A stretch of DNA of 64,000 nucleotides, taken from the NCBI GenBank assembly GCA_964568985.1, contig CAZMSP010000001.1, positions 11,179 to 75,178 on the forward strand, in the 5' to 3' direction. Every line of letters starts with the position of its first letter. Within the stretch, counting starts at the first letter, position 1. Position numbers and translations under genes: made by a program. Origin of the DNA: an uncultured Pirellulales bacterium (GTDB lineage Bacteria > Planctomycetota > Phycisphaerae > Sedimentisphaerales > Anaerobacaceae). Below are positions 4,290 through 60,836 of this stretch, in pieces. Below the pieces are notes generated by a model. The model saw only the letters and a list, made by a program, of their open reading frames with translations. It was not told the origin of the DNA and searched no databases.

Positions 4290-5525
4290 TCAGTGTGCTG
4301 GTCCGCTGGTTAGCGCGAATATATAAGCTGAGCCGGAGTTCTTTCCCTTGTCATCATCAAATATCGCCCCCACGATTGTCTTATCGCCGTTTATGAAAAC
4401 AGACCTGCCAAACCAGTCTTTGGCAGCACCATCTAAGGCGGTGAGCTTTTGCTGCTGAACCCAGTTCGTGCCGTCCCACCTGAATATATAAGCCGAGCCG
4501 GAGTCATTTCCTTTGTCATTGTCGCCCCACGCCCCCACAATTGCCAAATCGCCGCTGATAGAAACAGAGAAGCCAAAGTGGTCGCTCTCAGCACCATCTA
4601 TGGCCAACAGTTTTGCCTGCTGGACCCAGCCAGTGTCATCCCATCTGAATATGTAAGCCGAGCCGGAGTTAGTTCCCAAATCGTCATCCCAATACGCCCC
4701 CACGATTATCTTATCGCTGCATATAGAGACAGAAATGCCAAACGAGTCTCCGAGGACACTATCTGCGGCGGTAATCTTTTGTTGCCGTACCCAGCGAGTG
4801 CCATACAACAACCTGTATATATAAGCTGAGCCAGACTCAGCTCCCCCATCGTCATCGCCATGAGCCCCCACAATTATCTTATCTCCGCTTATAGAGACAG
4901 ATTTGCCAAACCCGTCACCAGGTTCCCCATCGGCAGCGGTGAGCTTTTGCTGCTGGCTCCAGTTAGTACCATCCCGCTTGAATATATAAGCCGAGCCTCT
5001 GTTGTCGTCGCAAAACGCCCCCACGACGGCATAACCGCCGCTTATAGAAACGATACCAAAGCAGTCGCCGAGAACGCCATCCGAGGCGATGAGCTTTGCC
5101 TGTTGAACCCAGTTGGTGCCATTCCGCCGGAATATATAAGCCGCGCCGCTGTTATTAAAATTGCCATCGCCATGACGTGCCCCCACAATGGCATAATCGC
5201 CGCTTATAGAAACAGAATTGCCAAACCAATGGCCATCATTAGCATCTGCGGCAGTGAGCTTTTGCTGCTGAATCCAGCCAGTGCCATCCCACCTGAATAT
5301 ATAAGCCGCGCCGGAGTCGACCCCCTTGTCATTATCGTTAGCTGCCCCCATGATGGCATAATCGCCACTTATAGAAACAGAGATACCAAAATGATCATTG
5401 ACCTGCCCGTCTGTGGCGGTGAGCTTGGCCTTTTGCAGCCAGGCGGTATCAGCCCTTGCCGACTCCAAAAGCACAAGAGAGCACAAAATCACTACTCCGC
5501 TAAGGAGATGGCGGATAGGTATCAT
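4290..5525 (-). CDS. secreted FG-GAP-like beta-propeller repeat protein
   Basis: At least 7 tandem ~50-aa repeats (FGxSVSISGDYAIVGA..DD..G..SGSAYIFRWDGTxWxQQQKLTAxDG). Signal peptide MIPIRHLLSGVVILCSLVLLESARA from ATG 5525. The ORF is open upstream to 5588. Confidence 0.8.
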   Translation of the reverse strand: MIPIRHLLSGVVILCSLVLLESARADTAWLQKAKLTATDGQVNDHFGISVSISGDYAIMGAANDNDKGVDSGAAYIFRWDGTGWIQQQKLTAADANDGHWFGNSVSISGDYAIVGARHGDGNFNNSGAAYIFRRNGTNWVQQAKLIASDGVLGDCFGIVSISGGYAVVGAFCDDNRGSAYIFKRDGTNWSQQQKLTAADGEPGDGFGKSVSISGDKIIVGAHGDDDGGAESGSAYIYRLLYGTRWVRQQKITAADSVLGDSFGISVSICSDKIIVGAYWDDDLGTNSGSAYIFRWDDTGWVQQAKLLAIDGAESDHFGFSVSISGDLAIVGAWGDNDKGNDSGSAYIFRWDGTNWVQQQKLTALDGAAKDWFGRSVFINGDKTIVGAIFDDDKGKNSGSAYIFALTSGPAH

Positions 5526-22660: not shown

Positions 22661-22680
22661 TTTTAACCCTCTTTCACAGC

Positions 22681-22750
22681 GATTAGCGTATAGTGTTTAG
22701 TGTTCAGGCACTATGCACTGTTTGCTATCTGCTATACGCTGTTCGCTAAT
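22681..22750. repeat. palindromic heptamer word array between capsid gene and next ORF
   Basis: gattagcg tatagtg tttagtg ... gctatct gctatac gctgttc gctaatt. 7-nt period, with arms roughly reverse-complementary. Confidence 0.65.
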
Positions 22751-23923: not shown

Positions 23924-23990
23924 GATTAGTGATTGGTTAAATGGTAACCGGTTAAATTGTTACTGATTACCGATTACCAGTTACCATAAT
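23924..23990. repeat. palindromic word array (GATTNGT / GTTACCA words) centred on TAACCGGTTA
   Basis: Fills the scaffold-capsid spacer. Related words recur at 49127-49293. Confidence 0.65.
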
Positions 23991-24536: not shown

Positions 24537-24584
24537 CGTTCATAGTTTTGAGTTCATAGTTCATCGGTGAACAACGAACTATGG
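24537..24584. repeat. AGTTCAT heptamer array with inverted arm
   Basis: cgttcat agttttg agttcat agttcat cggtgaa caacgaa ctatgg. Spans the portal stop codon at 24579-24581. Confidence 0.65.
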
Positions 24585-26159
24585 ACTCTCATATCCTAAC
24601 TCTCTGAGCACCTGTTCAGTTGGCACGCCCAGCTCTTTTTTAATTTGGGCCTCTTTTAGTTTTTCCGTCATATCTTCCGGCAGCGGGCTGGGGAAAATAA
24701 CATCAATCTCTCTTTGGCACTCAGAGGTCTTGTAGATGTCAGCCTTATCGAGTATTGCCAGAACAAACCGGCAGATTTTTTTCAGCCCTTCGCTGTATGT
24801 AAATTTCTTCCGTTCGGTTTTGGACAGCATTCCCATAAGCGTTAGTCGAAGAGCAACCGCACTTGTCAGGTTGCCGAGCTTGCTCTTGAGAACCCCAGCT
24901 ACAAGAGGCGTTACACCACTTGCTTTGTCCATCGCCTCCCTGATTTCAGCAATGTGTAAACTCTCACTTGGCGCCGCAGCATCTCCTCCAAACTCCTCAA
25001 TAGCCGCATCTGGATTATCCGTGTACCACATCCTGCCTGGAGAGATGGGCCTGTCCTCAAAGCCCTCTATGCCTTTTCCAAGATACATCTTGAACGACTG
25101 GAACGTAATCCTGCTTGCCCTGTCGCTTAATCTCGTATTAAGCTCATCCTGCAGCGGTATCAGCGGCTCGGCATCACTTAGCCCCTCGTAATAATATGGC
25201 TGAGCGATATTCTGGATATGCACCACCGGCAGAAATCCCCACGGTAATTCACCTTCCGCAACGAGCTGTTTGTCTTCATATCTCTGCCAGGCCGAGTCCG
25301 ATGTAACCTCTGTTACCACTACCACCTGCCGAGTATCGCCGCTTTGCCTGCCCCACGTAAACAGGTTGGAAAGAAAAGAGTTCTTCTTGGTCATCGCATT
25401 TCTTTTCTGGTAGAAGTGCTGCACGTAGAACCTTGTTTTTTTGTAGTCGTTTTCATCCAGAACAGGCAGTGCTCTCGGTGCTTCAATCAGCTCAAGGCCG
25501 ATTGTCCGTGCCAATTGCAGCACATCTTCGAACGAAGTTTTTTTAGAGGGTGAGGAGGAAGAGAAGGAAGACGAAGTGCGTTCTAAGATATCTGTGCCAG
25601 GCCTGATTAGGCAGTCGACAAAACCGTAAACACCTCCGAGCACCGCCATATCCTGGAAAAATCCGATTCCGCCGTTAGCCACAAAAACCGCCTTTAATAT
25701 GGTTTCAATCTCTGAGCGTTTTTGGCTATCCGGCGACCTCGAAACAAAACTAATTGGTTTGCCGAACAAAAAGTCAACCGCTGCGTTTATTCGCCAGGCA
25801 ATATCATTTTCAACAACTACTTCTTTTCGCTGCACATCTTTGACTGCCCGGCCGCCAAATACTCCAGCATCACTGCAATGCGCCAGGCCCGTTATCCTCG
25901 CAGGCAGACCATACTCCTGCGCCTGCACATAACACCTGCCTGATTCGCTCGTCCTTTTGTCGTAGCCGCTTATGCCATTTAGCTCATACGTCGGATTTGC
26001 ATAATATTCCCACAGCTTTGTAAAGTGCTTCTGTATATCAACCGAGTGCTCATCAACAAGCCATTCGAGGAAATCCGCATCAAGCTCGTCAGGGCGAAGG
26101 CCCTGCTGTGGTTCCGACTCGCACTCAGCCGAGTTAAAAATATCAAGCTCAAATCCCAT
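24579..26159 (-). CDS. phage portal protein
   Basis: About 526 aa from ATG 26159 (GGAG 8 nt upstream). Size and position fit a portal. The ORF-track extension to 26312 reads through REP-like elements and is probably not coding. Confidence 0.7.
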   Translation of the reverse strand: MGFELDIFNSAECESEPQQGLRPDELDADFLEWLVDEHSVDIQKHFTKLWEYYANPTYELNGISGYDKRTSESGRCYVQAQEYGLPARITGLAHCSDAGVFGGRAVKDVQRKEVVVENDIAWRINAAVDFLFGKPISFVSRSPDSQKRSEIETILKAVFVANGGIGFFQDMAVLGGVYGFVDCLIRPGTDILERTSSSFSSSSPSKKTSFEDVLQLARTIGLELIEAPRALPVLDENDYKKTRFYVQHFYQKRNAMTKKNSFLSNLFTWGRQSGDTRQVVVVTEVTSDSAWQRYEDKQLVAEGELPWGFLPVVHIQNIAQPYYYEGLSDAEPLIPLQDELNTRLSDRASRITFQSFKMYLGKGIEGFEDRPISPGRMWYTDNPDAAIEEFGGDAAAPSESLHIAEIREAMDKASGVTPLVAGVLKSKLGNLTSAVALRLTLMGMLSKTERKKFTYSEGLKKICRFVLAILDKADIYKTSECQREIDVIFPSPLPEDMTEKLKEAQIKKELGVPTEQVLRELGYESP

Positions 26160-27520: not shown

Positions 27521-27530
27521 GAAAAAATTT

Positions 27531-27690
27531 CTCGATTCTCGATCCCCGATTCTCGTCAAGTATCGAGCATCCAGCATCGCTTGTCCGCCGAAGCTTTAGC
27601 GAAGGGGGAAGCATCGAGTATCCAGTATCCAGCTTTATCCGCCGAAGGTGGAATCCAGTATCCAGCATCGAGAATCAAGCATCGAGGTCA
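27531..27690. repeat. heptamer word arrays (CTCGATN facing NATCNAG) plus TTATCCGCC hairpin
   Basis: ctcgatt ctcgatc cccgatt ctcgtca | agtatcg agcatcc agcatcg ... aatccag tatccag catcgag aatcaag catcgag. Confidence 0.75.
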
Positions 27691-32833: not shown

Positions 32834-34348
32834 TCAATACCTTCTTGATACGGTTTTGGCTGGTTGGGTGTAATTAACGAAGAAATAGCGTAAGGCGTCG
32901 ATGGGATGGTCGTATAGGCCGTCTTTCAACGGCAGCTCATTATCAGCAGTACCCGAATCCGGATAATGATAACAACGCAGGGCCTCTATCAAGCGGGGGC
33001 ATCTGGGTAAGATAATAAGCGAGTTTTTGCCGTCGCCACGGCGGATGGCCCTTCGAATAAGCTCGATGCCCTCAAGGATAGTGCTTTTGCGATAGCGAAC
33101 CTGTATGCCGAGCGAACGCAGTTCGCGAACGGTACTCGTGCCGGTGACATCATTCACACCGGCACCGGCTGGGTCGCAAAAGGTTGCTGCCACTTTTTCT
33201 TCACTGCAGGGCGTTCTGGTTTTCAACTCATCGGCATGGACATCAACCGTAGCCCTTGTGCGGACATACTCATCTATCACCCGCACGACGCCGGTACTAT
33301 CGACCTGAATCCATAAGCATACAAACGGATTGACAAAGCCGAAATCGAGCGAGCGATACAAAGGCAGATTCGGGTCATAATCGATAGACTTAACATGCGG
33401 GTCAGGGTCGAACTCGTTAAAAACGATGTTTTCCAGCGAAGGTCTTTTGCATAGCATCTCCGCCTCGAAAGCCGCCCTGCTTGCACGGCGCATCTGCGTA
33501 ATACAATCATCAATTTTCAGATAGCCGTTTGCCCGTTTTGCCTTGCCCTGGCAATCGCTCCATAAGGGACACTGCGAGCAGTTTCTGTCGGTGCATTTTT
33601 CGATTACCTCCCAGACACACCATTTGAAGACCGGCGTGTCAAGCTTTTGTGCATCTGAGACGATTTTTTGCATCAGGCCGTATGGGCGGTGCATCGTGCT
33701 GATGGTCTCCATCGCAGCGATGATATTGTCCGTGCTTTGTGTTGTGAACTTCGCAGCAGAAAAGACATCTTCATCAAAAAGCTCGACCTCATCGCAGCGG
33801 AGCTTCTGGATGTGCTGGCCTCGAACACTTGTCGCCGACTGCGTCAGGACCTCTATGGATGAGCCATTTATAAATCGGCATTTTGTTTTTAGAGCCGGAC
33901 TGGAGAGAAACTCGTCAAAGCCATTGTTTAGGAAGCTGGTCATATATTCGTACATCCTGCCGGATTGTTCGCCCGAGCCGCCGAGGATTCTGATGCGGCA
34001 GTCGGGCTTAAAGATACAGTCTAAAAGCGTTGCGACGGCAGCTAATTCGGTCTTGCCGCCGGCCCGGTTGGCCCAGACAACGCAATCTGCGTTTTTTGTC
34101 CCTCGTCTCTCGTCCCTCGTCCCTCGTATATGTGCAAGGTCTGCAGTGAAGCTGTGCCAGAGATAGTCCATAGGTGCATTATGCTCTGGGCAGATTCTTT
34201 CGTTCGGGATGTCGATGCCCAGAAAAACCTTGGCGTAATTTTTTAGATCGTGTCTTGTCGCTGGCAGAGTCCGTCTTAATTGGTGATAAGTATGTGCGGC
34301 CTTGTCGAGGCCTGCAGACATCGGTTCAAATAGCGTCAGATTTGACAT
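32834..34348 (-). CDS. terminase large subunit
   Basis: Walker A-like ANRAGGKTE and Walker B-like LRCDEVELFDE. About 500 aa. GGAGG 9 nt upstream of ATG 34348. The ORF is open to GTG 34399. Confidence 0.8.
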   Translation of the reverse strand: MSNLTLFEPMSAGLDKAAHTYHQLRRTLPATRHDLKNYAKVFLGIDIPNERICPEHNAPMDYLWHSFTADLAHIRGTRDERRGTKNADCVVWANRAGGKTELAAVATLLDCIFKPDCRIRILGGSGEQSGRMYEYMTSFLNNGFDEFLSSPALKTKCRFINGSSIEVLTQSATSVRGQHIQKLRCDEVELFDEDVFSAAKFTTQSTDNIIAAMETISTMHRPYGLMQKIVSDAQKLDTPVFKWCVWEVIEKCTDRNCSQCPLWSDCQGKAKRANGYLKIDDCITQMRRASRAAFEAEMLCKRPSLENIVFNEFDPDPHVKSIDYDPNLPLYRSLDFGFVNPFVCLWIQVDSTGVVRVIDEYVRTRATVDVHADELKTRTPCSEEKVAATFCDPAGAGVNDVTGTSTVRELRSLGIQVRYRKSTILEGIELIRRAIRRGDGKNSLIILPRCPRLIEALRCYHYPDSGTADNELPLKDGLYDHPIDALRYFFVNYTQPAKTVSRRY

Positions 34349-34612
34349 TGCTGTCACCCTCCATTGATAAGGCAAATTTTTTTGCTTTTTTTCCAACACA
34401 CTTCTATAAACTGCGTATACTTTATACAGATAGACTTATATGAGACTGTGCTTCATGGGCTGGCGCTGCTGTGGGCCTTGGAGGCACAGATGATGATACA
34501 AGAGAGACGAGTCTGGACAGATATAAAGAAAAAATATAAAGAACGGACCACCGTCTCTCTTTTTTTGCATCTCTATTGATTTGCGCAACATCCCTCATCC
34601 ACAGAACTACAT

Positions 34613-34629
34613 CACTATTTGGCAAAAGG
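34613..34629. repeat. 17-bp direct repeat CACTATTTGGCAAAAGG flanking the MTase cassette (copy 1)
   Basis: Matches 35313-35329 at 16 of 17 positions, exactly 700 bp away. Confidence 0.75.
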
Positions 34630-34663
34630 ATTATCTCATCAATAGCGGCTAATCTTTGCGTTT

Positions 34664-35296
34664 TCATCTTTTCTCCATAAAAGCATAGTTTGCAAGGTGG
34701 GAAACAGATTTACCTTTTATTTCTATTGTCTTTAATTCATCTATTTTGAAGTGCGGACTGAAGAGGTCTCTCAGTTCATCCTCAGATGAGAAATACAAAA
34801 CAGTTCCCAGTGAAGTATTTCTGTATTTTCCTTGGCCTCCAAATTGGGTGCCCTTATCGCTGAAACAAACAGAAAGGTACTTTCCTCCAGGATTAAGCAT
34901 TCTATAGACGCTTTGAACGTATTTGTCCCTTGTCTGGGGGAAAATATGATGCAGCAACTCCCACTCATAAGCAAAGTCAAAGGCCTCGTTAACTTTATCC
35001 AAATCACTAAGAACGTCAGCTACAAGAAAGTGGCACTTTACTCCCTTGACCTTGGCTTTTTCCTCGGCAATTTTTATCGCCGTCGGGGCAATATCTACTG
35101 CTGTGACATCAAATCCCATGCTCGCAAGGTAAATAGCGTGATTGCCAGCACCACAGCCTAAATCAACAGTTTTGTAGGGTTTCACTTTTCCACTCTCTAC
35201 TAACCGGACCAGAGCGTCTGGAGGGACCTCCATATTCCAGGGAATCTCTTCAGGAGGCAGTTCTCTGTAAATTCTGTCCATTTCTTCCTGCTGCAT
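34664..35296 (-). CDS. class I SAM-dependent methyltransferase (TehB/Methyltransf_11-like)
   Basis: Motif I VDLGCGAGNHAIYLA. 210 aa. Confidence 0.8.
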   Translation of the reverse strand: MQQEEMDRIYRELPPEEIPWNMEVPPDALVRLVESGKVKPYKTVDLGCGAGNHAIYLASMGFDVTAVDIAPTAIKIAEEKAKVKGVKCHFLVADVLSDLDKVNEAFDFAYEWELLHHIFPQTRDKYVQSVYRMLNPGGKYLSVCFSDKGTQFGGQGKYRNTSLGTVLYFSSEDELRDLFSPHFKIDELKTIEIKGKSVSHLANYAFMEKR

Positions 35297-35312
35297 AGTA
35301 CGGTAGGCACTC

Positions 35313-35329
35313 CACTATTTAGCAAAAGG
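35313..35329. repeat. 17-bp direct repeat CACTATTTAGCAAAAGG (copy 2)
   Basis: See 34613-34629. Confidence 0.75.
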
Positions 35330-35451
35330 TTCGTTTTTATGAAATCTTATTAAACATAAGTTTAATTAGCGAATTTTTATTAAAGATTTTGGGCAAAAAG
35401 TTTAATAAAGGCGTCGGATTTAGCCCGTTATCCTGATATCCGGTTCTCCTG

Positions 35452-35925
35452 CTACCTGATTTCCTGATCATCTGTCTTCTGCTCCTGTGCTAAGACTTCC
35501 AGAATTTTGCTTGCGGTTTCCGGCGATAGGCCGCCTGCGGCGGATTCGTCCATCGTCCCTCGTCTATCGTCACTCGTCTCCCCTCGCACAACCGGCTGCA
35601 TAGAAATAATATCAAGGCAGGCCTTGCGGGCGGTCTCTTGATTTTCCGATTCAGTAAGCTGAACGAGCTTCGCCGCAGCTAAGGTGGCGTACCTCGCAAC
35701 CAAAGCGGCGCTCTGTCGATAAGCAGCGGCGATGCGTCGGTCAAACTGCTCAGCGAAACAATCATCGGTAAGCCATTTGTAATATTGGTTTCGACTCACA
35801 TTATATTTTTCCAGCACGGCCTGCTCATCCAGCTCGCCGCTAAATATCTCATCGAGCATTGCTTGCTGCTTCTTTGTAAGGCTTGTCCGCCGTCTTTTTG
35901 GCGGATTCTTTGTTTTAGCCATCAA
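35452..35925 (-). CDS. small DNA-binding protein, terminase-small-subunit-like by position
   Basis: 157 aa. Basic N-terminus plus HTH-like EKYNVSRNQYYKWL. Lies upstream of TerL. Contains an in-frame NTCGTCN heptamer array at 35545-35586. Confidence 0.4.
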   Translation of the reverse strand: MMAKTKNPPKRRRTSLTKKQQAMLDEIFSGELDEQAVLEKYNVSRNQYYKWLTDDCFAEQFDRRIAAAYRQSAALVARYATLAAAKLVQLTESENQETARKACLDIISMQPVVRGETSDDRRGTMDESAAGGLSPETASKILEVLAQEQKTDDQEIR

Positions 35926-35941
35926 TGATTACTCCTTCTCG

Positions 35942-36682
35942 TCAAGGCGTAGGCCTTGACGTAACCTGAAATCCCAAAAGGGCCTTGATTTGTGCCTGTT
36001 TGTGGTCGAGGTAATATTGGCAGATAGCCGACAGTGCTGATGCTCTTTTGGTTGCTTTTGTCCGCCTGTCGTTTGGTGGGTTGGTATATGAATAGTCAAG
36101 AACCCCAGTCCTGTCCCTGATAGGGGCGGGATTGTCCTGCAGAGCAAAATTAAGCGCGGCTTCAATGACCTGTTGCTGCTCGTCACTTACGAAAAAGACC
36201 AGCGGATTTGAAAAACTTAATGCTCGATACTCGATGCTCGATACTTGTTGGGAGTCGAGCTTGATTAGTTTTTCGAGCTGGGCTTTTGTCTGCGGCAGCA
36301 GCTTTGCAAGTTCACTTGTTTGCATTCGCTCGTTGAGCCGTTTTAGAAGTGCGAGTTTTTTCTCAAGCACATCTTGTCCACAGAGCCGGTTAAGCGTTGC
36401 AAGCAGTATGTCTGCCTGCTCATCGTCAATGTCCCAGACGATTGCATCTGCCTCTTTTCTGCCAAGCTTTTTTAAGGCCAGCCAGCGATGATGGCCGTTG
36501 ATAATCTGAAAACAATCTGGATGCTCGATACCGGATACTGGACGGACAATCAAGGGCTCATATCGGCCGGTCCGCTCGATGTTGCGAACGAGCTTTGCAA
36601 AATTTGCCTTGCTCATTCGGTTAGGATTAGCAGGATGTGGGGCGAGTTTGTCTAAGGGTATTGACTGAATCTGATTTGTCAT
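35942..36682 (-). CDS. ParB N-terminal-domain (ParB-like nuclease/CTPase fold) protein
   Basis: IPLDKLAPHPANPNRMS ... GRYEPLIVRP ... INGHHRWLALKKLG motifs. Confidence 0.8.
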   Translation of the reverse strand: MTNQIQSIPLDKLAPHPANPNRMSKANFAKLVRNIERTGRYEPLIVRPVSGIEHPDCFQIINGHHRWLALKKLGRKEADAIVWDIDDEQADILLATLNRLCGQDVLEKKLALLKRLNERMQTSELAKLLPQTKAQLEKLIKLDSQQVSSIEYRALSFSNPLVFFVSDEQQQVIEAALNFALQDNPAPIRDRTGVLDYSYTNPPNDRRTKATKRASALSAICQYYLDHKQAQIKALLGFQVTSRPTP

Positions 36683-36718
36683 ATTTCTTAATTCTAAATT
36701 CTCAATTCTAAATTCTTA
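36683..36718. repeat. ATTCTNA heptamer array spanning the GNAT stop codon
   Basis: atttctta attctaa attctca attctaa attctta. Confidence 0.7.
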
Positions 36719-37446
36719 CTGAGCCATATGTAATAGACCGGCCTGTCGGTCAGTTTGCTCAGTATGTATCTTGTCCTTTCTGGGCCCGGCGGCATCATTC
36801 TACGTTTGCCGTAGCTTTGCAGAAAGCGTCTTATTTCAAGCTCGATAAATTCAGATTGTTCTTTTGGGAGCTTGTCAAGTTTTCGCTGTACATACTCGGC
36901 ATCGATGAGTTGATGTCCTTCTATGCCGGCGAGGTTGAACGCCTCGATGAGTCGTGAGCATCTTGCGGGAGTTTTTGCATTGTATGGCTTCATTCCGGCT
37001 TTTTCAAAGAACGGATTTATCAGTCCCATCACCGCCATCGCCTCGATGATGGGGACATTGAGCAGGGGCATTGTCTCGCTGACTAATCGAGTGGCCAGGC
37101 CGAGCGAGCGGAATCTCGGCTCAACGATAACCCTGCTTATTCTGCGGATATTTTTATTGATAAGCGCCAGCTGAGTGCTTCTATCCAGGCCGACGAATAA
37201 ATCGCCGGTAGCAATATTGCGAAGCTCAAGCGCAGGAGTCGGCATTGTATAAGCGATAACACCGATAGTTTTTATGCCTGCTCGCTGAGCCAGCACAGAA
37301 TCGCCCCTAAGCGCAAAGATGACGGCAAACGGCCCCAGCCGAGAGTCACGGTAGTGGTAATGTGACAGCGATTCGTAATCCTCGATGTTGCCCGGGACAA
37401 CCTGCAGTCTTTTACATATTGAGCAGCTTTTTCGTCGTACGTCCAT
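36694..37446 (-). CDS. GNAT-like acetyltransferase-fold protein
   Basis: Motif A-like ISRVIVEPRFRSLGLATRLV (R-x-x-G-x-A). 250 aa. Fold assignment is tentative. Confidence 0.5.
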   Translation of the reverse strand: MDVRRKSCSICKRLQVVPGNIEDYESLSHYHYRDSRLGPFAVIFALRGDSVLAQRAGIKTIGVIAYTMPTPALELRNIATGDLFVGLDRSTQLALINKNIRRISRVIVEPRFRSLGLATRLVSETMPLLNVPIIEAMAVMGLINPFFEKAGMKPYNAKTPARCSRLIEAFNLAGIEGHQLIDAEYVQRKLDKLPKEQSEFIELEIRRFLQSYGKRRMMPPGPERTRYILSKLTDRPVYYIWLSKNLELRI

Positions 37447-37497
37447 CGTCTATCGTCCATCGTCCATCGTCTGTCTTCTGACCTCTGACTTCTTATA
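37431..37497. repeat. ATCGTCN heptamer array spanning the ATPase stop and GNAT start
   Basis: ttcgtcg tacgtcc atcgtct atcgtcc atcgtcc atcgtct gtcttct gacctct gacttct. Confidence 0.75.
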
Positions 37498-38124
37498 GAT
37501 AACCTGCGTCTCGCCTGACAGCTCTTGTACGACCAGAACATCAGGTATCAGGTCGAGAAGTATGTCATCGTGGCTTGCCGCCAAGACAAATGTCACGCCT
37601 TTTCGTTTTGCAAATTTGTGTATATTGTGCGAAATCACAGCAGCGGTAATGCGGTCGAGGTTTGAGCAAAACTCATCTGCGAAAATAAATTTTTTACCCT
37701 CTGCAAGTGCCATCGCTATGCGGAACCGGTATTGTTGGCCTTCGCTGAGATTGGCCGGCTGATTGAGAATGCGGAAGACGTCGTTGAGACCTGCTGTGCT
37801 GAGTGTTCTAAGGCAGGAGAGAAAGTCACCATCAATACAATCGATGAGGGTTTTGTCTCTCGGAAGTTTTATTCGAGCGAGGTTCACTCTGTCTGATGCA
37901 GGGATTGATTTTTCCAGCTCACCCAACAGTACGCTTTTACCTGCACCCGATGGGCCGGTGATATAAACGATGTCACCATCGTTGATTTGAAGTCGGCAGT
38001 TAAAATTGATATGATTATTCTTGAGCCGGTCCACTGTCAGGCCGAACATCCTGCAAACCTGAGCGACCTTGTCGCTAATCCGTCCATTCCATTGAAAGCT
38101 TTTTGATATACTGTATGTCGGCAT
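37450..38124 (-). CDS. soluble ABC-type ATPase (no permease partner)
   Basis: Walker A GPSGAGKS, ABC signature LSEGQQ, Walker B FIFADEF. ATG 38124, with the ORF open to TTG 38148. Confidence 0.8.
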   Translation of the reverse strand: MPTYSISKSFQWNGRISDKVAQVCRMFGLTVDRLKNNHINFNCRLQINDGDIVYITGPSGAGKSVLLGELEKSIPASDRVNLARIKLPRDKTLIDCIDGDFLSCLRTLSTAGLNDVFRILNQPANLSEGQQYRFRIAMALAEGKKFIFADEFCSNLDRITAAVISHNIHKFAKRKGVTFVLAASHDDILLDLIPDVLVVQELSGETQVIYKKSEVRRQTMDDGR

Positions 38125-38174
38125 AGCTCCTACTTCATTATTTTTCAATCACGAAATATACAGATTTCACCGAT

Positions 38175-49126: not shown

Positions 49127-49293
49127 CAACTAATGAGTGGTTATTGGTAACTGGTTACAGGATATTAAAAATCAAATATCGAAATGTAAAATTAAGGAAG
49201 TCGTTGCCGCTTTGCGGCAACTCCATAATTTTGATTTTTAATCTTTGATTTTTGCATTCTTTTTACCAGTTACTATTTAACTAATAACTATCT
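49127..49293. repeat. nested palindromic spacer between convergent dnaK and mnmE
   Basis: Outer arms use GGTAAC/GTTACC words and middle arms use AAATCAAA/TTTGATTT words. The core hairpin is at 49203-49221. Confidence 0.75.
49203..49221. terminator. GC core hairpin GTTGCCGC-TTT-GCGGCAAC (candidate bidirectional terminator)
   Basis: 8-bp perfect stem with A/T-rich flanks on both sides, placed between convergent genes. Confidence 0.5.
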
Positions 49294-50745
49294 TTATTTT
49301 CCTATACAGAATTGGCTGAATATCCTGTCCAGAATCTCTTCGTCGATATGCTGCTGCTCGATATCGCTCATCGCCTTGTACGCTGCCCGCAGCATCATTG
49401 CAGTTACCTCATCATTGCTGGCTTTCAACTCAATCATGGCTTCGCTGACGTTTTCAATCGCATCTGTGACGGCCTGTCTGTGCCGGGCCATAAGAGCAAC
49501 CCCCGACGCTTGCTCAGAAAGCCCCTCGCTACCTGTACCAAGTACCAGCTCGATTAATTTCTTATCAATTGTATTTCGCAACTGTTCCACACCAACGCTG
49601 GTTACTGCAGAAGTTGGTAAAAACTTGGCGGCAAATAACTTATTTAACTCGGCAAGTCGATTAGCTAACATCTCCTCTGAGACGAGGTCAGATTTTGTTG
49701 CAACCAGTATCGCCGGTACAGACCCAAGACCACAGACCAAAGACCATAGACTAATCTCATCGGCCCACATTCCAAGCTCTGGAGCATTATATCTTGTGTC
49801 TTGTGTCTTGAGTCTGGGGTCTTTTGAAACATCCACGCAAAATACAACCACAGAGCTGTTGCGCAGCGCCTCGACTGCTGCTTGCTGCGCCAATTCATCA
49901 AGAATATTCTCTGCTGTAGCCAACAATCCTGCACAGTCGAACAGCACACATCTACAATGCGTCAGAGATAGTAGTCCCGTCAGGACATCCCTTGTGGTTT
50001 TGTGCCTGTCTGATATGATACTTCTTTCTTCGCCGAGCAACTTATTCAACAGACTGCTTTTGCCGGCATTGGTTGCTCCTGCTATGCCCACCGCTGGCAA
50101 ATCGATTAATGATTCATTCCTGATGCTGCCAGAAAGCAACTGCTCAAGCTCCATCTTTATCCAGGTAAGTTTTTCAACCGCCTGCGGTCGAGTTATAAAT
50201 TCGATATCTTCGCTGCTGAAATCCAGACCCGCTTCGATTAAGCTGAGACAATCCATCAGCTCTGACTGTATTTTTGCTGTAGCTTCAGCTAATCGCCCGC
50301 TCAGAAGTTTCTCAGCAGCAGCTAATTGAAAGGTATTGGAGCTTACCACGACTTCATTCACTGCCTCCGCCTGTGTTAAATCAATCTTGCCGGCTAGGTA
50401 TGCGCGCGCCGTGAACTCACCGGGCCCTGCCATTCGAAGGCCTTGGCTAAACATCTTGCCCATTAAGGTTTCTACAACAGCAGCGTTAGTATAGGTGTGA
50501 AATTCGGCAACGTCCTCACCGGTATAAGAGCGCGGGCCAAAAGACAGGTACAGTTTCGCTTCAACCTTAAGCTCGTCATCTACCGTTATACTTCCGGTAA
50601 TCAGACCGTTTGTTTTGATAGAGATAGGCGGCCTGAAAATCTGCTGACAGATTTCGACCATCTTAGGGCCGGTTATGCGAATAATCACCCTCTCCTGTGA
50701 ACTCGGAGAGCTAACCGCCACAATAGTATCGCTCAGGTCATACAT
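49294..50745 (-). CDS. mnmE: tRNA modification GTPase MnmE with a repeat-encoded ~36-aa insertion
   Basis: G-domain GATNAGKSSLLN, TTRD and TKSDL. C-terminal FCIGK. Insertion at 49718-49825. Confidence 0.9.
   Translation of the reverse strand: MYDLSDTIVAVSSPSSQERVIIRITGPKMVEICQQIFRPPISIKTNGLITGSITVDDELKVEAKLYLSFGPRSYTGEDVAEFHTYTNAAVVETLMGKMFSQGLRMAGPGEFTARAYLAGKIDLTQAEAVNEVVVSSNTFQLAAAEKLLSGRLAEATAKIQSELMDCLSLIEAGLDFSSEDIEFITRPQAVEKLTWIKMELEQLLSGSIRNESLIDLPAVGIAGATNAGKSSLLNKLLGEERSIISDRHKTTRDVLTGLLSLTHCRCVLFDCAGLLATAENILDELAQQAAVEALRNSSVVVFCVDVSKDPRLKTQDTRYNAPELGMWADEISLWSLVCGLGSVPAILVATKSDLVSEEMLANRLAELNKLFAAKFLPTSAVTSVGVEQLRNTIDKKLIELVLGTGSEGLSEQASGVALMARHRQAVTDAIENVSEAMIELKASNDEVTAMMLRAAYKAMSDIEQQHIDEEILDRIFSQFCIGK
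49718..49825. repeat. inverted heptamer arrays (AGACCNN)x5 ... (GTCTTGN)x5 lying in frame inside mnmE
   Basis: agaccca agaccac agaccaa agaccat agactaa ... atcttgt gtcttgt gtcttga gtctggg gtctttt. 108 nt, equal to 36 codons. Confidence 0.8.
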
Positions 50746-50752
50746 AAGAGAT

Positions 50753-50827
50753 TACAGAAGCCAGAAATCAGAAGCCAGATGTCAGAAGTCAGATTTTTCT
50801 GTCGTCTGTCCTCTGACTTCTGTCCTC
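50753..50827. repeat. inverted heptamer arrays (NCAGAAG)x6 / (TCTGNCN)x4 between yidC and mnmE
   Basis: acagaag ccagaaa tcagaag ccagatg tcagaag tcagatt ttt tctgtcg tctgtcc tctgact tctgtcc. The right arm runs into the yidC stop codon at 50826-50828. Confidence 0.8.
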
Positions 50828-59369: not shown

Positions 59370-60836
59370 ATGCAGGGTACATTCACGGATGATAAGCTCC
59401 GCTCTGCCGAAAACCAGATAAGCGCTATTAACGAAGCTCTCGCCAGGAATATAGGCCCACAAAAGTTTCGTATCTGGTTTAATAACTCAACCAGGCTTGC
59501 CCTTACCGGCAGCTATCTAAAGGTTGGTGTGCCAAACCTTTTCATTGCAAGCTGGATTGAAAATCACTTTGCAAACGAAATCAGTAAGGCGGTCAAAGAA
59601 GTTACCGGAGCCCATCGAAAGATTACATTCGCTATCGACCCCGAGCTTTCAGGCAGCCAGAGACGGACGCAGCTGGACTCACAGGCACGACGCGCAGCTC
59701 GTTCATCTATCCCCGGTTCTCGACGAGCATCGAGCATCCAGCATAGAGCATCCGGAAAGCTGAAATATAATCTGGATACATTTGTTGTCGGCCGCTCAAA
59801 TGAGCTTGCTTACAATGCTGCAAAAGCAGTTGTAAATGAGCAAAGAAGCCCTTTCAATCCTCTCTTTATTCACGGAGGATATGGCGTCGGCAAAACACAC
59901 CTGCTGCAGGGAATTTGCAAGGCAGTTTCCAAAAAGCGACCTCAGGCCAATTGGCTTTATCTGTCAGCCGAGGATTTCGTTAACCAGTTTGTATTGGCCT
60001 TGAAAATAAAAAAGCTCGAGCACTTTCGACAAAAAATGAGACAAACAGACTTGTTAGCTATCGACGATATCCACTTTTTGGCAAGCAAGCCATCAACGCA
60101 GGAAGAATTTCTGCATACCTTCAACACCATCAATCTTGCAGGCAAACAGGTCGTGCTGGCCTCCGACGCACATCCAAAGATGATAGGGCAACTGTCCGAA
60201 AAGCTAATTAACCGCTTCATCTCTGGCATGGTCGTCAAAATCAATAGCCCTGATTTCCAGACCCGCTGTGAAATCTGCCAGCAATACGCTGCTGCTATGA
60301 TGGGAGCAAACTTTGGCGCAGCCCATAAGAGGCTGGCCCAAAAGCAAATCCCCGAAAATGTAATAAGATATGTTGCCGAAAATCTGCGCTCCAACGTACG
60401 GGAGCTGGAAGGGGCAATGATGAAATTAGTTGCTTATTCGGCTCTGCAAAATGAGAAGGTTAATCTGTCTATGGCCCAGGAGGTTCTGGCTGAACACCTT
60501 GCCAGGACTGACCCCATTGTGCACATATCGGATATCGAATCAGCCGTCGCTACATATTTCGGCTTAACACCGGCCAATATACATTCATCCAAGAAGGATA
60601 GAACCATAGCCCTCGCCCGGCATTTTAGTATGTATCTGACGAGAAAACACACAAAGATGTCGTTCTCTGAGATTGGCAGATTTATGGGCAATAAAAATCA
60701 CGCCACCGTACTTCTGGCCTGCAGAAAGGTTGAAGACTTTATCAACAGAAATGTGGAGCTTCACTGGCTTTCGCCTGTCGGCAATAAAATCGCAAAGGCA
60801 AAAACCATTCTCGCCGAGCTTGAAGCAAGCATATAA
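59370..60836 (+). CDS. dnaA: chromosomal replication initiator DnaA
   Basis: Walker A GGYGVGKTHLL, Walker B DDIHFL and a C-terminal DNA-binding HTH (ALARHFSMYLTRKHT..FSEIGRFMGNKNHATV). The domain II linker carries a heptamer array. Confidence 0.95.
   Translation: MQGTFTDDKLRSAENQISAINEALARNIGPQKFRIWFNNSTRLALTGSYLKVGVPNLFIASWIENHFANEISKAVKEVTGAHRKITFAIDPELSGSQRRTQLDSQARRAARSSIPGSRRASSIQHRASGKLKYNLDTFVVGRSNELAYNAAKAVVNEQRSPFNPLFIHGGYGVGKTHLLQGICKAVSKKRPQANWLYLSAEDFVNQFVLALKIKKLEHFRQKMRQTDLLAIDDIHFLASKPSTQEEFLHTFNTINLAGKQVVLASDAHPKMIGQLSEKLINRFISGMVVKINSPDFQTRCEICQQYAAAMMGANFGAAHKRLAQKQIPENVIRYVAENLRSNVRELEGAMMKLVAYSALQNEKVNLSMAQEVLAEHLARTDPIVHISDIESAVATYFGLTPANIHSSKKDRTIALARHFSMYLTRKHTKMSFSEIGRFMGNKNHATVLLACRKVEDFINRNVELHWLSPVGNKIAKAKTILAELEASI
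59715..59756. repeat. heptamer array (ATNNAGC words) in frame within the dnaA linker
   Basis: ggttctc gacgagc atcgagc atccagc atagagc atccgga. The 15-mer TTCTCGACGAGCATC (59717-59731) is identical to 55547-55561. Confidence 0.8.

Follow-up and report, generated by a model that had tools for sequence, protein, structure and literature searches.

The window analyzed here is a stretch of 64,000 nucleotides (nt) on contig CAZMSP010000001.1 (positions 11,179 to 75,178; assembly GCA_964568985.1) from an uncultured planctomycete of the Sedimentisphaerales. On its minus strand it carries the mnmE gene (also named trmE), an open reading frame (ORF) of 483 amino acids at positions 49294 to 50745, and inside this gene two arrays of heptanucleotides, inverted with respect to each other, are located at 49718-49752 and 49789-49823. 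An earlier note, made from the letters of this DNA alone, had described the arrays as parts of a 108-nt palindromic element inserted in frame into the G domain of MnmE. Comparison with orthologues showed that the element-bearing segment of 36 residues replaces the native connector of the G domain, which runs from strand beta4 over helix alpha3 to strand beta5.

The heptamer element and its host protein

The host ORF indeed encodes the tRNA-modification GTPase MnmE, as Pfam, PDB and fold matches agree. Pfam searches detected TrmE_N (PF10396, 5e-24), MnmE_helical (PF12631, 1e-34) and MMR_HSR1 (PF01926, 4.5e-18), and the protein has the three-domain architecture of MnmE/TrmE, with TrmE_N at the N-terminus, a helical domain and, as an insertion, a Ras-like G domain. 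MnmE chains from the PDB were aligned at 1e-41 to 3e-45, with full-length alignments to 1xzp (3e-45), 3geh, 3gee and 9hip, and a Foldseek search with the predicted model returned the MnmE structures 3geh, 1xzp and 9hip as best matches. The sequence motifs GATNAGKSS (G1), TTRD (G2) and ATKSD (G4, a T-for-N variant of NKxD common to the clade) are present, and the protein ends with FCIGK, which corresponds to the C-terminal C-I/V-G-K motif. The window protein and all members of its clade carry DCAG in place of the usual DTAG (G3) and TKxD in place of NKxD. The closest proteins and loci come from metagenome-assembled genomes (MAGs) of Sedimentisphaerales/Phycisphaerae (Planctomycetota). According to the length distribution of 120 homologues the window MnmE is 19 amino acids longer than the clade baseline of 464-465 amino acids.

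On the plus strand the first array (49718-49752) reads ACAGACC CAAGACC ACAGACC AAAGACC ATAGACT and the second (49789-49823) ATATCTT GTGTCTT GTGTCTT GAGTCTG GGGTCTT. Tandem Repeats Finder reported both with a period of 7 and 4.6 copies (49720-49751 with the unit AGACCAA, 49792-49823 with TCTTGTG), and a repeat search of the window found inverted arms of 26 nt with 77% complementarity (49726-49751 and 49798-49823). The three-unit pattern AGACCNNAGACCNNAGAC, allowing up to two mismatches, occurs six times in the window, five times within the mnmE element, while shuffled sequences lead to an expectation of 0.12. The arrays thus exceed chance by far and the palindrome is real; they are mutually reverse-complementary and in frame as the earlier note had claimed, and the peptide quoted there is exactly the one encoded by the element. 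In the ORF list of the window three or more reading frames run through the element without a stop; since the heptamer units are devoid of stop triplets, this openness by itself is no evidence of coding. An assembly error, named in the earlier note as a refuting observation, was not found: three contigs of differing source, one of them from an independent Logan assembly of SRR9707468, code for exactly the same 483-amino-acid protein. Because the same protein is present in independent assemblies and dozens of orthologues, assembled independently, contain homologous elements, an assembly artefact is excluded.

Read on the coding strand, which is the minus strand for all parts, the element starts with the 5' arm (49789-49823), five well-formed heptamers (AAGACCC CAGACTC AAGACAC AAGACAC AAGATAT) that begin at the second base of the K308 codon and encode K-DPRLKTQDTR(Y). 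They are followed by two decayed units (49775-49788, AATGCTC CAGAGCT), recognized by comparison with other alleles, where AAGAGTC and AAGACTT stand in the same register; these units encode (Y)NAPE(L). The palindrome centre (49753-49774) reads TGGAATG TGGGCCG ATGAGAT T, with the consensus [CT]GGT[TC]TG TGGNCCG AAGAGAT T, and encodes (L)GMWADEI. The 3' arm (49718-49752), identified by Tandem Repeats Finder and by its inverted pairing with the 5' arm, contains the five heptamers AGTCTAT GGTCTTT GGTCTGT GGTCTTG GGTCTGT and encodes SLWSLVCGLGSV. Length and open frame of the 108-nt element were confirmed; the spacer of ~39 nt described between the arms is not foreign to them, as it shares their 7-nt register.

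The earlier note had assumed that MnmE proteins normally have a short loop at this place. Alignment of 78 Sedimentisphaerales loci showed a different baseline, a strictly conserved connector of 17 residues that contains helix alpha3. It lies between beta4 (VVVFCVDxSK) and beta5/G4 (xPVATKxDL), is found in ~62 of the 78 loci and follows the pattern x-D-W-S-E-D-[VI]-S-I-R-x-L-[IV]-E-P-K-x, which corresponds to alpha3; in the carriers of the element the connector has 29 or 36 amino acids. The window connector comprises 36 residues, so that the net gain is 19 amino acids (57 nt) and not 36. Window residues W327-A-D-E-I align with native W-S-E-D-V, and S-L-W-S-L-V aligns with S-I-R-E-L-V. The centre of the element thereby occupies the N-terminal half of alpha3 (W-x-E/D-E-I), starting where native W-S-E-D-V starts in the baseline orthologues, and the 3' arm provides its C-terminal half and the alpha3-beta5 turn, standing for native S-I-R-E-L-V-E-P-K. 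A clean insertion of 108 nt is not compatible with this net gain of 57 nt, nor with closely related pairs with and without the element, in which the whole native segment is swapped and not interrupted.

An AlphaFold2 model was calculated from an alignment of 69 sequences (mean predicted local distance difference test score, pLDDT, 73). In this model beta4 comprises residues 299-305, followed by a loop (312-324) with a pLDDT below 50, a helix at 328-339 (ADEISLWSLVCG) in a block with a pLDDT of ~86, and beta5 at 345-350. The 5' arm would thus be read as a hydrophilic repeat of seven amino acids (K/R-T/S-Q-D-x-R-x, KTQDPR type) that forms a disordered loop after beta4, and centre and 3' arm, which read W-x-E-E-I-G-L-W-S-L-V-C/W-G/S-L-G-S, are predicted to stand in for alpha3 and the turn before beta5 (TKSD). 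The idea of a translated, tolerated surface segment fits the data: the 5' arm is modeled as a disordered loop, and centre and 3' arm are modeled as helix, the 3' arm forming half of alpha3. Removal or bypass of the element at the RNA or protein level, the other possibility raised at the outset, did not find support. An Rfam search revealed no family matching the element, the frame is kept in all alleles seen, and the G domain would be without helix alpha3 if the segment were removed. With 36 amino acids or 108 nt the element is also much smaller than inteins and self-splicing introns, and thus too short.

Alleles of the element and their distribution

The DNA of 12 carrier alleles was compared, each written out with base two of the Lys/Gln codon as its start (labels with L denote DNA loci and labels with P protein clusters, P0001 being the window MnmE). 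All 12 show a single unbroken 7-nt register in the order (AAGACNC)n, [CT]GGT[TC]TG, TGGNCCG, AAGAGAT, T, GGTCTGT GGTCTTT GGTCTG[TG] [GA]GTCTTG GGTC... The 5' arm consists of 4, 7, 10 or 16 units; all alleles have five units in the 3' arm, which is almost invariant at the nucleotide level. The arms can thus be very unequal, with 16 against 5 units in L206 and 10 against 5 in L209. The window allele is a somewhat decayed copy with n = 7. L204 is without the central 21 nt and has lost the seven amino acids including W-x-E-E-I, and in L015 the palindrome continues through the centre, giving gapless arms of 47 nt with 70% complementarity.

At the protein level the element is found at the same site in 38 of the 120 closest MnmE clusters, always with an open reading frame. 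When connector length is counted after FCVDxSK and up to ATK (baseline 21 amino acids by that count), the 120 homologues fall into classes of 33, 40, 47 and 61 amino acids, in steps of seven, plus a class of 26 represented by the allele without the central 21 nt. Outside the element P0099 and P0117 have 97.7% identity, yet their 5' arms differ by 14 amino acids (42 nt); differences of seven (P0033/P0035 and P0058/P0110) or 14 amino acids (P0009/P0060) were seen in further close pairs. The carriers L004, L008 and L015, recovered by a motif-independent scan keyed on distant conserved peptides, all proved to be intact. Since 7 is not a multiple of 3, the steps of 21 nt point to heptamer slippage filtered by the reading frame. 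They also argue against excision from RNA or protein, because precise excision would not impose a 21-nt step and a frame constraint.

Sister genomes were compared with respect to presence and absence, as the earlier note had suggested, and close relatives of carriers were found to include MnmE proteins without the element. With the connector masked, most carriers among the 120 clusters fall into one large clade; nevertheless the nearest neighbours of P0001, P0064 and P0039 are element-free in 500 of 500 bootstraps, and those of P0036 in 415 of 500. P0002 is the sister of the window MnmE that has no element. Two pairs of loci define the borders. L204 and L210 share 92% protein identity outside the region, and the identity of their flanks is ~90% as far as TCAAAAGA at the left border and GATA at the right one; inside, an element of 66 nt in one and a native segment of 60 nt in the other have nothing in common. 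The whole segment is swapped at the same borders in L202 and L211. The window flanks resemble L001 (0.82-0.85 identity), and the window element is 0.69-0.82 identical to that of other carriers. In the alignment to orthologues, as proposed in the earlier note, the repeat-bearing segment varies and most orthologues are without it.

The scattered alleles share details outside the repeats: GGGTCG.CGGCAGTGATA is present in L202 and L204, the same positions of the 3' arm are variable, and a C-G variant of the 3' arm recurs. Because of these shared details and the C-G variant, the scattered elements are considered homologous and not convergent. Judged from these comparisons the distribution is reticulate, and the simplest explanation would be that element and native segment are alternative cassettes exchanged through homologous recombination that ends within the conserved codons on either side. 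Independent growth in situ from native seeds was considered as a cause of the scatter and was rejected on account of the shared non-repeat details and the replacement of whole segments. The native K-E-D-W-S-E-D codons already hold AAGAGGA, TGGTCTG and AAGACGT, and growth from such seeds is possible as a single original event.

Period-7 arrays in the window and beyond

Arrays of this period are not limited to mnmE. In 919 kb, comprising the window and 80 related loci, 104 period-7 arrays with very diverse units were detected, compared to at most nine for each of the periods 5, 6 and 8-11, and a stricter scan of the window revealed 13 period-7 arrays where shuffled sequences gave 0.15. Period-7 arrays are thus a hallmark of the Sedimentisphaerales lineage. 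The architecture shared with intergenic arrays, stated in the earlier note, was confirmed for the window: inverted heptamer pairs of the same build fill the intercistronic spacers at 22676-22750, 23938-23983, 24538-24586, 27529-27686 and 50754-50827. The intercistronic spacer at 49226-49254 is likewise largely filled by such arrays. The units, different in each of these spacers, are TAGTGTT, GATTACC, GTTCATA, TTCTCGA/ATCGAGN, CAGAAGN/TCTGNCN and TTTTGAT. The spacers around mnmE orthologues likewise contain arrays of differing families in each genome; one family is located upstream of mnmE in L001 and L002 and downstream in L202, and some arrays adjoin start codons. This location of the arrays suggests a general role or an origin at gene junctions.

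Arrays within genes were also found. The dnaA gene of the window (59370-60836, plus strand) contains four copies of CGAGCAT at 59724-59753, which would be translated into RASSIQHRAS, a stretch of the linker that connects DnaA_N (residues 19-76) with the ATPase domain (132-289). Judged by its reading frame, dnaA is the second essential gene with a period-7 array read in frame. Further in-frame arrays are present in a terminase gene and a ParB-like gene. A prophage-like block at 32834-38148 encodes Terminase_6C, ParB_N and an ABC-type ATPase and contains arrays inside ORFs (34098-34127, encoding IRGTRDERRGT, 35546-35579 and 36223-36245) and across gene junctions (36685-36716 and 37440-37493).

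The highest load was seen in the mnmE gene of L015 (6001-7893, 631 amino acids), which contains at least five in-frame palindromes. These are arrays of ACGACGG and of GGACAGA close to the N-terminus, the KTQD/GLWSLV element, an inverted pair of CTCGATA units, a perfect 10-bp hairpin (CCCATTTTGC/GCAAAATGGG) encoding LGPHFAKNSQNGNP, and a GC-rich palindrome after CAGLT with a folding energy of -62 kcal/mol. The CTCGATA family recurs directly downstream of this gene. In P0078, P0080 and P0103 a similar peptide, GTPFCNKAQNGNP, is located in the beta4-alpha3 loop; a second element family is thus present at two different sites. The yidC-mnmE spacers of L004, L008, L014, L015 and L209 share a different palindrome, similar to MITEs (miniature transposable elements with inverted repeats), TGTCATTCTGAG...CTCAG[CG]ATGACA, ~130 nt upstream of mnmE.

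Beyond the lineage, a metagenome scan detected at least 120 loci (L081-L200) with GGTCTNN arrays, on many unrelated contigs with GC contents from 0.27 to 0.72. Among the matches listed, 24 of 126 GGTCTNN arrays have an AGACC partner array within 200 nt, and a motif check of the flanking translations flagged none of the listed matches as mnmE. Because they were found across metagenome contigs, inverted heptamer arrays are not confined to the Sedimentisphaerales. When 1.84 billion representative proteins were searched by HMMER with the 37-amino-acid element peptide, one chance match was obtained (P0121, a repetitive protein of 788 amino acids) and the known MnmE carriers were missed. Unrelated in period, a tandem repeat of 165 nt (6.6 copies, 68% matches) was observed at 4317-5390 within long ORFs on both strands; it may belong to a repeat-domain protein.

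Interpretation and comparison with known systems

Taken together, we consider it probable that the mnmE segment is a translated, in-frame palindromic heptanucleotide-repeat element and that it belongs to the lineage-wide population of period-7 arrays in the Sedimentisphaerales. The 5' arm would gain and lose units by slipped-strand mispairing; only changes of three units (21 nt, seven amino acids) keep the MnmE frame, and only such alleles were seen. Element and native segment would act as alternative cassettes exchanged at the flanks VVVFCVD.SK and (I)PVATK.DL. The element itself is most likely a selfish or neutral by-product of a process that generates and spreads heptamer palindromes, and its persistence would be due to stop-free units and a translation product that is structurally tolerated. 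A tolerated, slippage-prone repeat element similar to the Rickettsia palindromic elements (RPEs) is thus the best reading of the data.

Several observations weigh against this interpretation. The element is most probably translated, a conclusion drawn from comparative data and the structure model, and the overall confidence of that model is moderate (mean pLDDT 73, predicted template modeling score 0.44). A second AAGACNC/GGTCTNN palindrome was not found outside mnmE in the 64-kb window or the 80 related loci, and because of this lack of other copies membership of a dispersed family is not established for these units. In addition, the mRNA strand of the window allele can be folded into a long imperfect stem of -38.8 kcal/mol (z = -2.5, and -1.2 when folded as DNA), and identity at third codon positions between carriers is 0.83 in the element compared to 0.62 in the rest of the gene. 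The higher identity at silent sites hints at a younger age, at homogenization of the repeats or at a constraint at the nucleotide level such as structure.

The last two observations would also be expected if the nucleic acid itself had a role, with an imperfect mRNA hairpin of ~100 nt, or a DNA cruciform, tuning translation, mRNA stability or processing, and with the intercistronic arrays acting likewise. Most alleles fold well as RNA (z of -2.4 to -6.5 within a total range of -6.5 to -0.3), arrays of the same build are located between cistrons and beside start codons, and a regulatory role has been proposed for upstream TAACTGA repeats (PMC4679880). However, the alleles with unbalanced arms, L206 (z = -0.3) and L209 (z = -1.0), and L204 (z = -0.6) fold like shuffled sequences, and the arms are just ~77% complementary. 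As the 3' arm is nearly constant and the number of units differs in the 5' arm, pair columns are undefined and folding was done for each allele separately; the near-invariant 3' arm provides no supporting covariation. Furthermore, most orthologues including the closest ones are without the element, and it has no Rfam match. The hairpin potential would thus be a legacy of the palindromic make-up, with no positive sign of selected pairing, and a role of the nucleic acid is in our view unlikely.

A phase-variation switch would be a second way to use the repeats. A slip by a single heptamer or by two would cause a frameshift and switch MnmE off, so that in a subpopulation wobble-uridine modification and the fidelity of translation would change. 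Heptamers are prone to slippage, most slips lead to a frameshift as 7 is not a multiple of 3, unit number changes fast (42 nt at 97.7% protein identity), and switching based on simple sequence repeats is well established in other bacteria (PMC4679880). Yet all recovered alleles are in frame, including the three from the ORF-independent scan, the arrays are short (4-16 units) and broken by unit variants, and a like array is present in dnaA, where an off state would be lethal. Protein databases are biased toward intact ORFs, so that rare off-variants could be missed; even so we regard a switch as very improbable.

A further alternative is an adaptive protein segment, in which a newly gained charged loop close to the face that binds the nucleotide might tune G-domain dimerization or binding of MnmG. 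The C-terminal end of beta4 faces the nucleotide side in the Ras-like fold, and the loop follows beta4; moreover, the element is kept through a large clade (38 of the 120 nearest clusters) and the peptide of the 3' arm is strongly conserved. On the other hand, loop length and sequence vary freely between 4 and 16 units, the loop is predicted to be disordered, L204 manages without the central seven amino acids, and sister lineages use the native connector of 17 amino acids, which leaves an adaptive function with a very small likelihood. Removal of the element as intron, intein or by translational bypass, or its origin as an assembly artefact, is favored by nothing but the palindromic, hairpin-forming nature of the DNA and is hardly conceivable, considering the absence of an RNA family match, the too small size, the preserved frame with its 21-nt steps, the identical protein in three independent assemblies and the fact that centre and 3' arm supply the otherwise missing alpha3.

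A bolder extension of the favored reading, a tolerated RPE-like repeat element, may be entertained tentatively. The heptamer-armed palindromes of the Sedimentisphaerales and, to judge by the metagenome scan, many other environmental bacteria could be an undescribed class of self-propagating elements that reside in spacers and, like RPEs, in frame in essential genes, overwrite a native secondary-structure element with a mimic encoded by the repeats and are transferred between species as short cassettes with fixed borders, by a dedicated homing-like or template-switch process in place of ordinary recombination and slippage; we see this as possible but rather doubtful.

The repeat-element reading would extend selfish palindromic DNA in coding genes from obligate intracellular Rickettsia to free-living Planctomycetota, and it would imply that heptanucleotide repeats can build palindromes inside genes although a period of 7 nt does not match the 3-nt period of codons. 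Close relatives provide a natural experiment, in which an essential and highly conserved GTPase has the native alpha3 connector in some genomes and a surrogate encoded by repeats in others, with a loop growing in steps of seven residues; this experiment is useful for studying the tolerance and acquisition of protein segments and the filtering of repeats by the reading frame. For annotation, the arrays explain length variation of MnmE (464 to 631 residues), DnaA and other proteins in MAGs, such variants being real and not assembly errors.

Among known systems the RPEs are the closest. According to the account in PMC10969869, they are palindromes of ~100-150 nt located in frame in conserved housekeeping genes and regarded as selfish DNA (Ogata et al. 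2000), and the extra peptide segments translated from them were judged compatible with the fold of the host protein. The mnmE element shares with them a palindrome of 106-108 nt in frame in its gene, and the at least five palindromes in the L015 gene represent an RPE-like load. In contrast to the RPEs, which are defined sequence families of Rickettsia and not tandem heptamers, its arms are period-7 arrays with variable unit numbers, and it replaces a native segment coding for a helix rather than interrupting the gene. Other heptamer families are dispersed, but AAGACNC/GGTCTNN was found as a palindrome only in mnmE in the window and the 80 loci, whereas an RPE family has many copies spread over one genome. 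Resemblance to the consensus sequences RPE-1 to RPE-10 is unlikely, considering the heptamer build and the unrelated host. The host is a free-living sediment planctomycete and Rickettsia is obligate intracellular.

MITEs and palindromes of the repetitive extragenic palindromic (REP) type, such as BIME, ERIC and Correia, are described in PMC10969869 as short, non-autonomous and hairpin-forming elements in intercistronic spacers that are occasionally fused in frame, all of which fits the arrays reported here. However, L204/L210 and L202/L211 show replacement of a native segment of ~60 nt with no target-site duplication, and neither classical terminal inverted repeats nor an associated transposase nor dispersed identical copies were identified.

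With respect to the repeat unit, the element resembles long simple sequence repeats (LSSRs), among which heptanucleotides form a class liable to slippage (Mrazek et al. 2007, as summarized in PMC4679880), as well as the short tandemly repeated repetitive sequences (STRRs) of cyanobacteria and the TAACTGA repeats of Beggiatoaceae. As presented in PMC4679880, these share with the arrays found here an over-representation of 7-nt tandems compared to other periods, slippage in unit number and a mostly intergenic location near gene ends, at times within ORFs if the unit is free of stop codons. LSSRs are tandems with units of 5-11 nt that exceed the length expected from chance in the respective genome, and the mnmE element with its two 4.6-copy arrays (six pattern matches versus 0.12, and 13 window arrays versus 0.15) fits this description. 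STRRs have canonical heptamer unit sequences in heterocystous cyanobacteria; here the period is the same, whereas the units are AAGACNC/GGTCTNN and the host belongs to the Sedimentisphaerales. All these known repeats are furthermore described as direct arrays of one or few fixed units, while the arrays reported here have diverse units and typically form inverted pairs, and the mnmE element is placed centrally in a conserved catalytic domain and not at the protein periphery. Literature searches retrieved no paper linking heptanucleotide repeats to Planctomycetes/Planctomycetota or Phycisphaerae. The element thus differs from RPEs and LSSRs/STRRs alike in its inverted heptamer arms, its role as a helix surrogate, its cassette-like distribution and its planctomycete host.

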